Shown here piece by piece: positions 936 to 16,895 of a stretch of DNA of 20,833 nt (its first letter is position 1; each line of letters starts with the position of its first letter). This DNA is from a phage. The DNA lies in the NCBI GenBank assembly GCA_012060505.1, contig GCA_012060505.1_3027.1. One strand, given 5' to 3'. Made by a program: the position numbers and the translations under genes. The notes below the pieces were generated by a model that saw only the letters and a program-made list of their open reading frames with translations, was not told the origin of the DNA and ran no database searches.

Positions 936-1201
936 TGTTCATCCTTTAGAGTTTGGTTTACAGCTCTATTATAAATCAATTCATCATTAAGCTCAGTCAA
1001 AGACTTATGATATGTGGTTCTAACTTTATTTCCTTGCATCCAGTGCTTGACGTAAATGAAACCTTGCTCTACACATTTTTTAAAAATTCGTTCGTCTTTT
1101 TGAGCTCGGAATTCTGGATTGCATCTAAAAAATTGATTTACGTGACCGTAATCACGTGTAGTATTACCTTCATTTTCATAAATAGTATGAACAACAAACA
1201 T
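932..1201 (-). CDS. Hypothetical protein, 89 aa (position of T4 30.1)
   Basis: ORF track; ATG start; TAATG overlap with upstream ORF and ATGA overlap with ligase start. Confidence 0.6.
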   Translation of the reverse strand: MFVVHTIYENEGNTTRDYGHVNQFFRCNPEFRAQKDERIFKKCVEQGFIYVKHWMQGNKVRTTYHKSLTELNDELIYNRAVNQTLKDEQ

Positions 1202-2043
1202 TAGAATGCTCCTTGTAAAATATTATCACCACTAGTAGGTCTATTATACAAATACTCTATGCCACCAGGTTTAATATAGTTCCATGTATGAAATGGATGC
1301 ACATGATATGGATGTGTATAATATGGATGGTATGGATTTAATCCAGGAGTTCTCCAGGTAGTATTCCAACGAAAAGAATCGTTTTTAATCATCTTTTTAA
1401 TTACATCTTTTATAGCTTTTTCACTATCAAAACTTTCTTTATTTTCCTTCGATGGAAAAAGCTTATTCTCTACATCATTCCATGTATAAACTCGCTGTGC
1501 AGTTTTTGGAATACTGTCACGTTCCCCTCGAGCCATCCAATAAACAGGCACATTTAATATTTCACTCGCATGATCGCAGTGGTGAGCGAGATCGTCAATA
1601 TAACAAATTACGTTATATTTCTCTTTTGCCTTTTTGAACAACTCTTCTTTTGAAGAATCATGACCACACATCAATACTTCTGAGAAGGCACCAGGAAAAA
1701 GAGCATTCAAATTAAATTGACGATTCAACAGAGCGTCAATAGAATCACCCAATGCTGTAACAGCTACAAAATTATAATCTTCTTTTAATTTGTTAATTAC
1801 ACACAGTGCATCTTTATATGGAGACAAATAACGAATAAAATCTGAACGATTGTATTTTTCAATTAACTTGACGCCAAGTTCTTCGTCACAATTAAAGAGT
1901 TTACCTGGAGAAATAAATTTCTCATCTTGGATCATTTTTAAAATATGTTCTAACGGAAGATTATATTTCTGAGCAAAATAAGGAAGGCCTGATTGCCAGC
2001 TCAAACATACTCCATCAATATCAGTTAAAATAGTTGGCTTCAT
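1201..2043 (-). CDS. HAD-superfamily-like hydrolase, 280 aa (position of T4 30.2), with His/Pro/Tyr-rich C-terminal tail
   Basis: N-terminal LTDIDGV resembles HAD motif I (DxDG[TV]); C-terminus NPYHPYYTHPYHVHPFHTW; ATG start, coupled overlaps both ends. Confidence 0.7.
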   Translation of the reverse strand: MKPTILTDIDGVCLSWQSGLPYFAQKYNLPLEHILKMIQDEKFISPGKLFNCDEELGVKLIEKYNRSDFIRYLSPYKDALCVINKLKEDYNFVAVTALGDSIDALLNRQFNLNALFPGAFSEVLMCGHDSSKEELFKKAKEKYNVICYIDDLAHHCDHASEILNVPVYWMARGERDSIPKTAQRVYTWNDVENKLFPSKENKESFDSEKAIKDVIKKMIKNDSFRWNTTWRTPGLNPYHPYYTHPYHVHPFHTWNYIKPGGIEYLYNRPTSGDNILQGAF

Positions 2044-2498
2044 AGAGAGTCTCTTAATAGGTTTAACACATCAATAAATTCAGCTTCGGTTAGTATTGTA
2101 TCATCTTTTGTTAGACCACTAGCCATGCTGTGCTTCAAAACTTTTCCTTTCGAGGCTTGTAATGCATCGCGAAAGCCTCTGTTTTGAAGCGCTGCTTCAA
2201 AATACGCATTTGTGTATAATTCTTTCCAGGCTGGGGAGTATCTTGAAAACGGAACTCCAAGCCAGAAGAGGGTCCCACGGTCCTGAGCTCTAGCATAAGA
2301 CCTTCCAGCTTGTTGGGCGGCAAGCCCGGATAACCCAAATATACGACGTTGTTGTTCAACATTTTTCACCTTGCACCCTTGGAGGAATCCTTCAAGACCT
2401 CCAAATTGAATGCCATCCATAACGAAAGGCCATTGGGCGAAATTACTTAATGCACATGATGGCCATTTAAAATTGCTTCTAATCTCTAACTCAGACAT
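2040..2498 (-). CDS. NADAR/YbiA-like (DUF1768) protein (position of T4 30.3)
   Basis: Motif SNFAQWPFVMDGIQFGGLEGFLQGCK resembles the FSNF..WP...DG...E..Q..K core of YbiA/NADAR proteins as I recall it. ORF-track start at 2504 appears to be TTG; moved to in-frame ATG at 2498. Confidence 0.6.
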   Translation of the reverse strand: MSELEIRSNFKWPSCALSNFAQWPFVMDGIQFGGLEGFLQGCKVKNVEQQRRIFGLSGLAAQQAGRSYARAQDRGTLFWLGVPFSRYSPAWKELYTNAYFEAALQNRGFRDALQASKGKVLKHSMASGLTKDDTILTEAEFIDVLNLLRDSL

Positions 2499-7734: not shown

Positions 7735-8938
<1,204 letters not shown>

Positions 8939-9812: not shown

Positions 9813-10309
9813 AAAGTTTTAATAACCTCTATAATATCGTCTTGAGAAAGACCGTTAATTAAAATATGATGTTCAGCCGGAGATTTAGAAATTTTAAAGC
9901 ACGCCGCAACATCTTCTGCCATATCCGATGCGCTACGATTTGGATTACTAATTCCAAGACGATGCTTTCCAGTCAAAGGATTAACGATGATATAGCATTT
10001 ACAGCTATTAATGTGAACATTAGGTTGAGTCTGATTAATGAATACTTCACAATCGTATTTCGCAAACTGATTTTCTAAAAAGACTTTCATCTCCTCAACC
10101 GCATCGGGAAGCATATCACGGGCTTGCTCAAGACGACGATTTCGATATTCTTTAGTGGTCGTTTTCCGCTTGACTTGCTTAGCTAAATCTTTCTTAAGAT
10201 CGGTGATATATCCAACTCGACGATTTCCTTTGAATACAGAAATCCCATCTGTAGTATCACCGTATGCTTCAACGACCATTTCAGTAGTAATAAGCTGCAA
10301 ATCCATCAT
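9803..10309 (-). CDS. alc: Alc, host transcription elongation inhibitor
   Basis: MDLQLITTEMVVEAYGDTTDGISVFKGNRR... matches recollected T4 Alc; tandem ATG start, may be 10306. Confidence 0.85.
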   Translation of the reverse strand: MMDLQLITTEMVVEAYGDTTDGISVFKGNRRVGYITDLKKDLAKQVKRKTTTKEYRNRRLEQARDMLPDAVEEMKVFLENQFAKYDCEVFINQTQPNVHINSCKCYIIVNPLTGKHRLGISNPNRSASDMAEDVAACFKISKSPAEHHILINGLSQDDIIEVIKTLCM

Positions 10310-10310
10310 A

Positions 10311-10368
10311 AAGTCCTCATGTTATGTCAGTAAGACTACTATAACACAACATGAGGGACTTGTAAACA
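10311..10368 (-). promoter_or_regulatory. T4 early-type promoter upstream of alc, inside a 13-bp inverted repeat that includes the alc Shine-Dalgarno
   Basis: Minus strand GTTTAC-AAGTCCCTCATGTT-gtgtTATAGTagtcttactgacat-AACATGAGGACTT-t-ATG; 13/14 arm match with one bulged C. Confidence 0.6.
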
Positions 10369-10370
10369 GC

Positions 10371-11958
<1,588 letters not shown>

Positions 11959-11985: not shown

Positions 11986-13164
11986 TTAAAAGTATTTTTT
12001 AAAACTCATCATAACTTTATCATCAACATCATTATCAATCTGTGCAACAAGATAAGATGACAGCTCTACTTCTTGCGGTGCAGATTGAACATTATCAGAA
12101 TTAAGATATTCACGAATCCAAGGATATGGATGTTTAACCGGAGCATCGGTAATTGGGCATGGAAGACCACACTGTTTCATACGAGATACAGTTAAGTAAT
12201 CAATAAAGCTCCACATGCTATTTGTATTTAATCCAGGAACATCGCCATCTTTAAATAAATGAACTGCCCAATCTTTTTCTTGGCGGTTAACTTCCATGAA
12301 AATATCAACTGCTTCTTGTTCACACTCTTTGGCAATTTTAACCCATTCATCACCATCAGTACCGGATTGAAGTTGACGAATAATATATTGTGTACCTTTA
12401 AGATGAAGCTGCTCATCACGTGCAATAAATTTCATAATCTTCGCATTACCTTCCATGATTTCCATGTTCTTATGGAAGTTGAAAGTACATGCAAAGGATA
12501 CATAAAAACGAATAGCTTCCAGAGCATTGATAACGTGCAGACAGAGATAAAGCGACTTCATCAGGTCTCGTTTACATTCTTCCAAATGAGTGAGACTGTT
12601 TGAATATGCTTCTAAATCATATTCATTTTCAGCAAAATAACTAAAGTTTTCTTTGGCGTTTTCCCAAATACGTGTCTTGTCCAGAACATCATCATAATAA
12701 CGACCAATAGATTCAGCACGTTTCATGATAGCTTTATCTAATACAATCTCATCAAATACCTTTGACGGATCAGTATAAAGATTTCGCATAATATGAGTGT
12801 ATGAACGACTGTGAATGGTTTCACTAAAAGTCCATGTAGCAACCCATGTATCAAGGCTTGGGTCTGAAATCAATGACATAAGTACAGCAGACGGTGCACG
12901 ACCCTGAATGCTATCTAGAAGTGATTGATACTTCAGATTATTAGTAAAAATATTTTGCTGATACTGAGGAAGCTTATTAAATTGCGCAGCATCCATCATT
13001 AAGTTTACTTCTTCAGGACGCCAGAAAAATGACAACTGCTTTTCGGTTAAATCTTCAAAAACTTTATGACGTTGAATATCATAACGCGCAATACCAAGAC
13101 CTGAACCAAAAAACATAGGTTCTTTTAAAACATCAACTGGATTTGTATTAAAAACTGTGCTCAT
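11986..13164 (-). CDS. nrdB: Ribonucleotide reductase class Ia small subunit, uninterrupted
   Basis: 392-aa continuous ORF, ferritin-like R2; position after nrdA. No intron-like interruption. Confidence 0.9.
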   Translation of the reverse strand: MSTVFNTNPVDVLKEPMFFGSGLGIARYDIQRHKVFEDLTEKQLSFFWRPEEVNLMMDAAQFNKLPQYQQNIFTNNLKYQSLLDSIQGRAPSAVLMSLISDPSLDTWVATWTFSETIHSRSYTHIMRNLYTDPSKVFDEIVLDKAIMKRAESIGRYYDDVLDKTRIWENAKENFSYFAENEYDLEAYSNSLTHLEECKRDLMKSLYLCLHVINALEAIRFYVSFACTFNFHKNMEIMEGNAKIMKFIARDEQLHLKGTQYIIRQLQSGTDGDEWVKIAKECEQEAVDIFMEVNRQEKDWAVHLFKDGDVPGLNTNSMWSFIDYLTVSRMKQCGLPCPITDAPVKHPYPWIREYLNSDNVQSAPQEVELSSYLVAQIDNDVDDKVMMSFKKYF

Positions 13165-13215: not shown

Positions 13216-15480
13216 TCATAATTTACAGGATGAACAATCTTCAGCTTTTGGAGTTTCTATTTCATAATCATCAGTACCAGAACCATCACGGGTATTATGA
13301 TAATAGAAATTTTTAATGCCATAATACCATCCGTATAGCATATCATCAATCATTATTGACATTGGAACCTTTCCTTTTGGAAAAATCTGTGGGTCATAAT
13401 ATGTATTCGCTGAAGCTGATTGACATACCCATTTCAGCATAATAGCTACCTGCGTAAGATAAGGTTTATTACCTTTCTTAGCTAATTTCCATGTATAATC
13501 ATAAAGGTCTATGTTATGCTCAATATTGGGCACGACTTGATTAAAGGAGCCCTCTTTTGATTCTTTAACAGAGACTGGTCCACGTGGAGGCTCGATACCG
13601 TTTGTACTGTTAGAAACTTGGGAAGATGACTCACATGGCATAAGTGCTGATAATGTGCTATTACGGATGCCAAAGAGCTTAAGGTCTTCCCGCAGCGACG
13701 ACCAGTCACAAACGTATTTTGGAGCTGCGATTTGGTCAATCTTTTTATTGTACCAGTCGATAGGTAATTCGCCTCGAGACCAACGAGTGTCTGAATAATA
13801 TTCACAAGGTCCTTTTTCTTTGGCGAGCTTAATGGATGCTTTAATGAGTCCATACTGTAATCTCTCAAATAGTTCATGTGTTAAATCGTTAGCATCTTCA
13901 TAAGAAGCAAAGTTACTTGCCAGCCAAGCTGCATAGTTGGTAACACCTACACCAAGGTTACGACGCTTTTTAGCTTTTTCTGCTTCAGGAACTGGATATC
14001 CTTGGTAATCCAAAAGATTATCAAGAGCGCGAACTTGAACTTCTGCCAATTCATTAATTTTATCTTGGTCTTGCCAGTCAAAATTATCTAGTACGAATGC
14101 AGAGAGAGTACACAATCCAATTTCAGCATCAGGACTATTCACATCATTTGTTGGAATAGCAATTTCACAGCACAAGTTACTCTGGCGAATAGGTGCCTTT
14201 TCACGAATAAACGGAGTGTAGTTATTCGTATTATCAATGAACTGCACATAAATCCTTGCTGTTCCTGAGCGTTCAGTCATGAGCAATTCAAATAGTTCAC
14301 GGGCTTTAATACGCTTTTTACGAATATTAGGGTCTTTTTCTGCAGCTTCATACAATTCACGGAAACGGTCTTGGTCTTTAAAATAAGAATAATAAAGCTC
14401 TCCGCCCATTTCATGGGGACTGAACAAAGTAATGTAATCGTTCTTTCCAAAACGTTCCATCATCAAATCATTCAGTTGAACACCATAATCCATATGACGA
14501 ATGCGGTTTTCTTCTACACCTTTGTTATTTTTCAAAACGAGAAGATTTTCAACTTCCAAATGCCAAATAGGATAATAAGCAGTAGCAGCGCCGCCACGAA
14601 TTCCACCCTGTGAACATGATTTAACTGCAGTCTGAAAATGTTTCCAGAAAGGAATAACACCAGTATGGCGTACTTCACCCATGCCAATCTTAGAACCTTC
14701 GGCACGAATCATACCAACGTTAATACCAATTCCAGCGCGTTTAGAGATATATTCAACAATTGAAGCGGAAGCCTTATTGATAGACTTTAATGAATCACCT
14801 GCCTCAATAACAACGCATGAACTAAACTGTCGAGTCGGAGTACGGCAACCAGCCATAATAGGAGTTGGCAATGAAATCTGTCGAGTAGATACTGCTTCAT
14901 AAAAACGGATAACGTGTTTTAATCTATCAACAGGTTCATCTTGATGCAATGCCATTCCAATAGTCATAAATGCAAACTGTGGAGTTTCATAAATTTGACC
15001 AGTGGTTTTATCTTTAACTAGATATTTTTCTTTTAATTGCATCGCCCCGGAATAAGTAAATTCCATATCCCGCTCGTGCTTAATTTTTGATTCTAAAAAT
15101 GTAATTTCTTCTGCAGAATATTTTGACAACAATTCAGGGTCGTATTTACCTTCATTTACACAGTAAGAAATATGGTCAATAAATGAACGTGGTTCATACT
15201 GCCCATAAACATGCTTACGAAGAGCAAACATTAAACAGCGTGCAGCTACATATTGATAATCAGGTTCTTCAACCGAAATAGAATTCGCAGCGGCCTTAAT
15301 GACAATAGTCTGAATATCATCAGTTGTCATTCCATCACGGAGATAAGATTTAATATTTTCATATAATTCATAAGGATCGACTGATGTTCCTTCAGCTGCC
15401 CAAGATAAAACTTTAATAATTTTTTGTGGGTCAAAGCTCTGAGAAACACCACTACTTTTGATAACATTAATTAATTGCAT
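13216..15480 (-). CDS. nrdA: Ribonucleotide reductase class Ia large subunit, 754 aa
   Basis: Length matches recollected T4 NrdA; active-site region NLCCEIAIPT and C-terminal Cys pair (CSSCKL) typical of class Ia R1. Confidence 0.95.
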   Translation of the reverse strand: MQLINVIKSSGVSQSFDPQKIIKVLSWAAEGTSVDPYELYENIKSYLRDGMTTDDIQTIVIKAAANSISVEEPDYQYVAARCLMFALRKHVYGQYEPRSFIDHISYCVNEGKYDPELLSKYSAEEITFLESKIKHERDMEFTYSGAMQLKEKYLVKDKTTGQIYETPQFAFMTIGMALHQDEPVDRLKHVIRFYEAVSTRQISLPTPIMAGCRTPTRQFSSCVVIEAGDSLKSINKASASIVEYISKRAGIGINVGMIRAEGSKIGMGEVRHTGVIPFWKHFQTAVKSCSQGGIRGGAATAYYPIWHLEVENLLVLKNNKGVEENRIRHMDYGVQLNDLMMERFGKNDYITLFSPHEMGGELYYSYFKDQDRFRELYEAAEKDPNIRKKRIKARELFELLMTERSGTARIYVQFIDNTNNYTPFIREKAPIRQSNLCCEIAIPTNDVNSPDAEIGLCTLSAFVLDNFDWQDQDKINELAEVQVRALDNLLDYQGYPVPEAEKAKKRRNLGVGVTNYAAWLASNFASYEDANDLTHELFERLQYGLIKASIKLAKEKGPCEYYSDTRWSRGELPIDWYNKKIDQIAAPKYVCDWSSLREDLKLFGIRNSTLSALMPCESSSQVSNSTNGIEPPRGPVSVKESKEGSFNQVVPNIEHNIDLYDYTWKLAKKGNKPYLTQVAIMLKWVCQSASANTYYDPQIFPKGKVPMSIMIDDMLYGWYYGIKNFYYHNTRDGSGTDDYEIETPKAEDCSSCKL

Positions 15481-15797
15481 AAGTCCTCAACTTGAAAATC
15501 GTCTTTAAACAATCGGTTAACTATATGAGCTATTATATCACCATGACACGGCTTTGGTTTACATGTGCATCCTAGCCTCATTCCACGTAAAGGCTCTAAA
15601 TGTGCTTTAGTTATTTCTCCGGATTTAATTCGACGTATAAAATCTTTTTTGAATAATTCAATGGCAGCCTCCCGGCTGCCAGCATCTTTACCGACGTAAT
15701 TTCCCCAAAATGTACCACGGTGAATATTAACATCAAAGTCGGATTTATATTTATTTACTACTCGGCATATACGGCCTGTGCGGTTGTAAGTGTTCAT
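15471..15797 (-). CDS. DUF4326-like small protein (nrdA.1-like by position)
   Basis: FWGN...[11 protein letters not shown] pattern resembles the DUF4326 signature as I recall it; ATG start; 10-nt overlap with nrdA start. Confidence 0.55.
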
Positions 15798-16034: not shown

Positions 16035-16895
16035 TTACACCGCCATTTTTCCTTTAATTGGCGGATGAGATACATAGTTGTTAAGAACAAAATTATGAGG
16101 CTTTGCAAATTGACTCAACCAAAATACCTGCGATTCTGTGCCCCATTCATCAAATTCATCTGGAAATTTTAATTGTAATTCGCATAAATCCATAGGTTCA
16201 CGACATAAAATTTCTTTACATTGTTCTACGTGATTCATATAGATATGAGTATTACCACCAGAAAATATCAAATCTCCCGGAATAAGATTACACATCTTAG
16301 CTACAATATGAACTAACGTAGCATATGATGCAATATTAAATGGAAGACCGAGGAAAACATCTACCGAACGTTGATACCACTGAAGGTCAAGGTATCCATT
16401 ACGCACATTAAACTGATAGAACATATGACAAGGCGGTAATGCCATATATTTAAGTTCAGCTGGATTCCACGCAGAAACAATTTGACGCCTATCATTTGGC
16501 AGTTTTTTAATACGATCAATAACTTCTATAATTTGATCTACACCGCCAAAATCACGCCACTGTTTTCCATAAATTGGACCAAGTTCACCGCTATGGTATC
16601 CTAAATCTTTTGCTTGATTTTCGTAATTTTCATCCCAGACTGTTTTGCCTTGAATTAATGAATCATGTTGAATTAATCGCAAATCATTGACATTTGTGCT
16701 TCCTGATAAAAACCATATTAGCTCAGCAATGCATGCATTCCAGGCGAGCTTTTTAGTTGTTACTGCAGGAAAACCTTTGGTTAAATCCCAACGCAATTTA
16801 GTACCGAACAGAGCAATTGTTCCTGTGCCCGTTCGGTCATCGGTTTCATAGCCATTTTCAAAAATGTCTTTAATTAAATCTTGGTATTGTTTCAT
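16035..16895 (-). CDS. td: Thymidylate synthase, 286 aa, uninterrupted
   Basis: ThyA active-site motif PCH ([11 protein letters not shown]); one continuous ORF of the length recollected for T4 Td, so no intron and no I-TevI ORF. Confidence 0.95.

Follow-up and report, generated by a model that had tools for sequence, protein, structure and literature searches.

Phage NADAR enzymes and DarTG1 defence

[quoted passage not shown] In that study, crosses between phages placed DarTG1 resistance in the 3′ portion of gene 30.3, deletion of adfN left T4 and T2 unable to form plaques on DarTG1 cells, and ectopic expression of adfN rescued phage RB69. Purified T4 AdfN stripped ADP-ribose from DarT1-modified DNA in vitro, the substrate being DNA purified from DarT1-expressing cells, and a two-hybrid assay detected no association between AdfN and DarT1 (PMC11825919). 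DarTG2 was not countered by AdfN (PMC11825919). NADAR proteins had been described to reverse the guanine ADP-ribosylation catalysed by DarT1, with a phage branch of the family being noted (Schuller et al., Mol Cell 2023, PMC11543638), and T4 gp30.3 was reported to hydrolyse G-ADPr and not T-ADPr in vitro (Toxins 2024, PMC11125620). Cytidine-linked ADP-ribose (C-ADPr) is likewise not removed by the T4 enzyme (2026, PMC12945103). The methods section of PMC11125620 gives the T4 NADAR construct as 'gp30.3; residues 1-208', as compared to the 152 amino acids of T4 gp30.3 (10308..10766 in the T4 record), and it is therefore uncertain which protein was assayed in vitro in that study; some members of the gp30.3 family are approximately 200 aa in length with an N-terminal extension, such as P0101.

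AdfN is the first reported 'orphan antitoxin' enzyme of a lytic phage, which repairs the DNA of the phage itself once this has been attacked by a defence toxin, and as such it shows that phages and bacteria actively contest each other through ADP-ribosylation of DNA. Two further phage proteins, AdfN-Bas32 and AdfN-Bas60 from T5-like and Vequintavirinae phages, also counter DarTG1 with the same guanine-specific activity, and were independently acquired from other branches of the NADAR family. The function of adfN is thereby that of an already characterised counter-defence gene, published between 2023 and 2025, and the allele described here represents no new biology.

A T4-like locus with an orthologue of gene 30.3

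The window (the whole stretch of DNA analysed, 20.8 kb) is a segment of a Tequatrovirus (T4-like) genome with all genes located on the minus strand. Its gene order is as in T4, running from the end of gene 30 via 30.1-30.9, rIII, 31, cd, pseT, alc, rnlA and denA to nrdB, nrdA, td and frd, up to gene 32, which agrees with the placement of the ORF 'among the 30.x ORFs' in the preliminary description of this DNA. The ORF at 2040..2498 (-) was confirmed, with an ATG startcodon at 2498..2496 and a TGA stopcodon at 2042..2040, and this adfN coding sequence (152 codons plus the TGA) is predicted to specify a single-domain, phage-type NADAR ADP-ribosylglycohydrolase of 152 aa. A TTG at position 2504, two codons upstream of the ATG, likewise opens the frame; the ATG start agrees with the T4 annotation and with the N-termini of the homologues.

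The neighbours of adfN are gp30.4, of unknown function, and the HAD hydrolase gp30.2. Gene 30.4 ends at position 2491, 8 nt within adfN, while reading of the sequence at the other end shows an ATGA junction (2040..2043, minus strand) where the adfN TGA (2042..2040) overlaps the ATG of gene 30.2 (2043..2041). The genes 30.4, adfN and 30.2 thus form a tightly packed, co-directional string, and the arrangement in T4 is identical. The order of the genes in this slot also agrees with that of RB69, and was the same in 13 close loci from IMG/VR. A 1.7-kb stretch around adfN gave megablast matches in 636 phage records, the best with 96-97% identity. A simple scan for promoters and terminators around adfN gave no more candidates than shuffled sequence, and nothing specific to adfN.

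The window protein is identical to T4 gp30.3 (NP_049816) at 148/152 positions (97%) over the full length, with the two differing by four conservative substitutions (K11R, L104I, R107K and M125I), none of which is at a conserved position; K11 and M125 are found in RB69 gp30.3 too. The protein matched the Pfam family PF08010 (Phage_30_3, 'Bacteriophage protein GP30.3') with E = 1.3e-69 and 232.8 bits as compared to a cut-off of 36, spanning positions 1-138 of the 138 positions in the profile, and matched phrog_652 with E = 3.9e-51; a Pfam match of this strength greatly exceeds what chance would give. Based on sequence and gene order, the gene at 2040..2498 is the orthologue of T4 gene 30.3 (adfN), located in the identical slot. 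The two proteins also share their length, the slot flanked by 30.4 and 30.2, the C-terminal helix and the residues E36, K43 and H123.

The window also contains features that differ from the T4 map at some distance from adfN. In the region of nrdB, nrdA and td (11986..13164, 13216..15480 and 16035..16895, minus strand), both nrdB (392 aa) and td (286 aa) are uninterrupted, and hence the window lacks the td intron as well as the I-TevIII-containing intron of T4 nrdB. The nrdA gene directly follows nrdB, without the T4 genes nrdB.1 and mobE. An additional ORF of 100 aa is present between pseT and pseT.1 (8636..8938, minus strand), which has no counterpart on the T4 map and matches phrog_2364 (unknown function), without a match in Pfam.

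Placement in the NADAR/YbiA superfamily

The preliminary description had recognised a NADAR/YbiA-like protein, and this assignment was upheld by a profile-profile match, the fold and the conserved residues E36 and K43. The proposed search against the DUF1768/NADAR family failed in its literal form, as the window protein used as a single sequence did not match the Pfam NADAR profile PF08719, even at E <= 10, but the profile of its family did match the YbiA family. An alignment of 69 gp30.3 homologues was compared by hhalign with an alignment of 35 YbiA-family proteins, and the two families matched over 126 columns (97.2% probability, E = 3.6e-11). A search of the PDB with the gp30.3 family profile also matched YbiA (E = 0.0024), and three relatives (P0073, P0184 and P0200) gave sub-threshold matches to PF08719, with E-values of 1.5e-7 to 3.8e-4. 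Sequence homology of the window protein to PF08719/NADAR is therefore found at the profile level only. Scans with NCBIfam and PADLOC gave no match, leaving PF08010 as the sole family found among Pfam, NCBIfam and PADLOC. A match to an ATP pyrophosphatase (E = 0.36) in the single-sequence search of the PDB was dismissed as a chance match, as the family profile was needed to find YbiA.

The AlphaFold2 (AF2) model of the window protein had a pLDDT of 93.4, and is predicted to display the YbiA fold, with an alpha-helical core and small flanking beta-sheets. The window protein belongs to the phage branch of the NADAR/YbiA superfamily, with its membership being based on profile-profile and structural evidence, since the single sequence does not score against PF08719. 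A 108-aa ORF located elsewhere in the window (15471..15797, minus strand), which matches Pfam DUF4326 with E = 5.5e-22, was considered as a second NADAR-like protein and rejected, with hhalign giving 0.2% against the gp30.3 and YbiA profiles.

Catalytic residues and the last beta-strand

The motif quoted in the preliminary description, SNFAQWPFVMDGIQFGGLEGFLQGCK, was found at residues 18-43 and is encoded at 2370..2447 (-). This S18-K43 core has the conserved pattern SNF...E-x6-K, is likely to form the ADP-ribose-binding and catalytic helix region, and aligns with FSNFA...SEHYFQAQKF in YbiA. In 69-70 homologues, no variation was seen at L17, S18, N19, F20, F25, E36, G37, F38, Q40 and K43. Alignment thereby confirmed the presence of both residues expected to be catalytic: the glutamate E36 (codon GAA, 2391..2393, minus strand) aligns with YbiA E48, and K43 (codon AAG, 2370..2372, minus strand), a catalytic or ADP-ribose-contacting lysine, aligns with YbiA K55, each being invariant in the 69 homologues. 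The mutations E36A and K43A each abolish the activity of T4 AdfN (PMC11825919).

The residue on the last beta-strand separates the NADAR subfamilies, with His in the phage proteins, Glu in YbiA and Asp in DarG1/BC4488 (PMC11125620, PMC11543638). In the window protein this position is H123 (codon CAC, 2130..2132, minus strand), on a strand which the model places at residues 120-123, and it is invariant in the 69 homologues. Where YbiA has VEHTEND, the phage family has L-x-HSMG, without a Glu at this site. The DarG1 proteins (such as the Geobacter/Trichlorobacter lovleyi NADAR, PDB 8bat; BC4488 family) are encoded next to the darT1 toxin gene and combine the last-strand Asp with N-terminal extensions which form a DNA channel, whereas the window protein carries His123 and is limited to the core domain (PMC12945103). 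No darT1 toxin gene was found next to adfN, and there was no PADLOC match, making adfN an orphan.

The same site bears on the metabolic role that had been offered as an alternative to counter-defence, in which the protein would be a YbiA-type N-glycosidase that cleaves reactive intermediates of the riboflavin pathway or another small-molecule N-riboside during infection, rather than a DNA repair enzyme. The fold and the E...K motif are indeed common to gp30.3 and E. coli YbiA (PDB 2b3w; PF08719), and YbiA is annotated as an N-glycosidase. Identity between YbiA and the window protein is about 18-20%, however, and the last-strand Glu which defines YbiA is replaced by an invariant His in the gp30.3 family. 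The ybiA gene is located in a LexA-type dinG/ybiB neighbourhood and has been linked to N-glycosidase activity on riboflavin intermediates and to swarming (PMC11125620), whereas there are no rib genes anywhere in the 20.8-kb window, where the genes around adfN are a HAD hydrolase gene and 30.x ORFs without an assigned function. With the T4 orthologue also being clearly active in removing ADP-ribose from DNA, and having a DarTG1 phenotype (PMC11825919), we regard a metabolic role as extremely improbable.

The C-terminal helix and the RB69 allele

The AF2 model shows, with high confidence, a C-terminal alpha-helix at residues 138-151 (2046..2087, minus strand), which is missing from the RB69 allele. 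At the same locus in RB69, a 1-nt T insertion creates a TGA directly after ILT137, which shortens gp30.3 by 15 residues with loss of the last helix. The remaining 137 residues of RB69 gp30.3 (NP_861905) are 95% identical to the corresponding part of the window protein. RB69 gp30.3 is a natural null allele and RB69 is sensitive to DarTG1 (PMC11825919), because the T insertion truncates the protein and removes the helix.

Truncated or frameshifted alleles of gp30.3 thus exist, in RB69 as well as in several database entries of T4-like phages with lengths of 86-109 aa, and the window copy could in principle have been a decayed, inactive gene of this type that gives no protection. It is, however, full-length at 152 aa and without a frameshift, its C-terminus has the intact T4-type sequence including the helix and lacks the T insertion of RB69, every invariant residue is retained, and just four conservative differences separate it from the functional T4 AdfN, so that we attach next to no weight to decay. 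Given the presence of all invariant residues and the intact C-terminus, and judging from the 97% identity to T4 AdfN, the window allele is expected to be active. The ORF is very probably an intact, functional-looking adfN allele, encoding a single-domain enzyme of minimal size, from the phage branch of the NADAR proteins, which counters DarTG1, and its enzyme activity and counter-defence phenotype would be the same as for T4 AdfN. The phage from which the window derives should accordingly be resistant when infecting hosts carrying DarTG1, unlike RB69.

For these shortened or frameshifted alleles of T4-like phages, the entries concerned are P0007, P0016, P0017 and P0044, together with 10268..10681 in L083. 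Unless sequencing errors account for them, the phages carrying such alleles may be sensitive to DarTG1 by nature. In one of these phages, vB_Eco_NR1, gp30.3 reads through into the frame of the nested ORF 30.3′.

Proposed mechanism and target range

The preliminary description had suggested that the protein could reverse guanine ADP-ribosylation by DarT-type toxins, a function that has been published for the T4 orthologue AdfN. Upon infection of a DarTG1 host, DarT1 would ADP-ribosylate the N2 amino group of guanines in the phage DNA, and this modification would block replication of the phage. AdfN would then hydrolyse the N-glycosidic bond between ADP-ribose and guanine, probably using E36, K43 and the last-strand H123 seen in the model, which would release ADP-ribose and restore unmodified DNA, allowing the phage to replicate. 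AdfN would thus act as an 'orphan antitoxin' by enzymatic reversal of the damage and not by binding of the toxin, and would be specific for guanine adducts, without acting on the thymine adducts made by DarT2.

A different main target may be considered, with DarTG1 as just one of several targets, such as RNA with ADP-ribosylated guanines, or the adducts made by pierisin/ScARP-like or YarT-like toxins. All NADAR families tested are reported to remove G-ADPr from RNA as well as from DNA (PMC12945103), T-even phages carry layered anti-DarT factors (PMC11825919), and the spread of the gp30.3 family, with approximately 1,500 phage records ranging from phages of Escherichia to those of Vibrio, Acinetobacter and Rhizobium, may exceed that of DarTG1. 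Conversely, T4 AdfN does act on DNA from DarT1-expressing cells (PMC11825919), and sensitivity to DarTG1 is the sole phenotype demonstrated for T4 and T2, with no other in vivo target reported in the literature examined. We therefore consider it very unlikely that the main target lies beyond DarT1-modified DNA, while a wider range including G-ADPr in RNA and the products of other guanine-directed transferases is possible as an additional role of AdfN.

Dependence on T-even infection and the neighbouring gene 30.2

Counteraction of DarT1 by the T4 enzyme depends on its setting. AdfN-T4 did not protect uninfected E. coli from DarT1 (PMC11125620) and was unable to replace DarG1 in uninfected cells (PMC11825919), while phages T5 and Bas25 were rescued only weakly, with full function seen during T-even infection only (PMC11825919). 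[quoted passage not shown] Hypermodification of the DNA was ruled out as the reason for this dependence, and the involvement of a further T-even protein was suggested (PMC11825919). The failure of AdfN-T4 in uninfected cells and its weak effect with T5 and Bas25 indicate that the picture of a lone enzyme is incomplete, and that a T-even factor or context is needed.

If the missing partner were encoded directly beside adfN, the translationally coupled gp30.2 would be the obvious candidate, and its role could be to convert the ADP-ribose set free, or a nucleotide product, or else to bring AdfN to DNA under replication; we consider this very unlikely. Gene 30.2 (1201..2043, minus strand; 280 aa) has a start overlapping the adfN stopcodon, and sequence motifs and the structural model identify its product as a hydrolase of the HAD superfamily, similar in type to 5′(3′)-deoxyribonucleotidase. 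A Pfam search of gp30.2 gave no match, but the HAD motifs D8-x-D10, K132 and D150-D151 are invariant in 49 homologues, and the best Foldseek match was the 5′(3′)-deoxyribonucleotidase 2jao (E = 2.7e-8). In the AF2 model, residues 1-200 are confident, with residues ~225-280 forming a disordered tail rich in His, Pro and Tyr. The protein is called hypothetical in most GenBank records.

The distribution of the two genes over the phage collection is similar (1,511 records with adfN versus 1,440 with gp30.2) with matching genus counts, which could reflect merely the shared T4 backbone. The two genes were within 3 kb of each other in 20/80 related loci, and adjacent just in the closer relatives of T4, and hence an obligatory two-gene module of adfN and gp30.2 was not supported.

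The nested ORF 30.3′

Within adfN lies an out-of-frame ORF of 75 aa, 30.3′ (2135..2362, minus strand), which belongs to PF11097 (DUF2883) and for which the T4 annotation gives an internal translation product. Among 13 close relatives, nine have lost or displaced its ATG and one has an internal stop, and its amino acid identity falls to 55-61% where that of gp30.3 is maintained at 84-86%. We rejected 30.3′ as the real functional unit of the locus, as it contains neither the sites of the published mutations E36A and K43A nor that of the frameshift in RB69. Judged by its sequence, 30.3′ is probably not a conserved gene, but a by-product of the adfN frame.

Distribution and unusual family members

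Homologues of gp30.3 were detected by tblastn in 1,511 of the 50,697 phage records searched, most of these being T4-superfamily phages of Escherichia, Klebsiella, Shigella, Aeromonas, Acinetobacter and Vibrio. Nearly all of these records have the gene annotated as 'hypothetical protein', a label which can now be corrected. Among 1.84 billion representative proteins searched with a profile, 1,684 clusters (50% identity) were found at E <= 0.001. Among the metagenomic proteins, the gp30.3-type domain was present in tandem or fused to other regions in P0134, P0169, P0196, P0200 and P0098, which could be either real cellular fusions or artefacts of gene calling; the fusion partners were Lgt, BspA-type leucine-rich repeats and a FtsW/RodA-like region.
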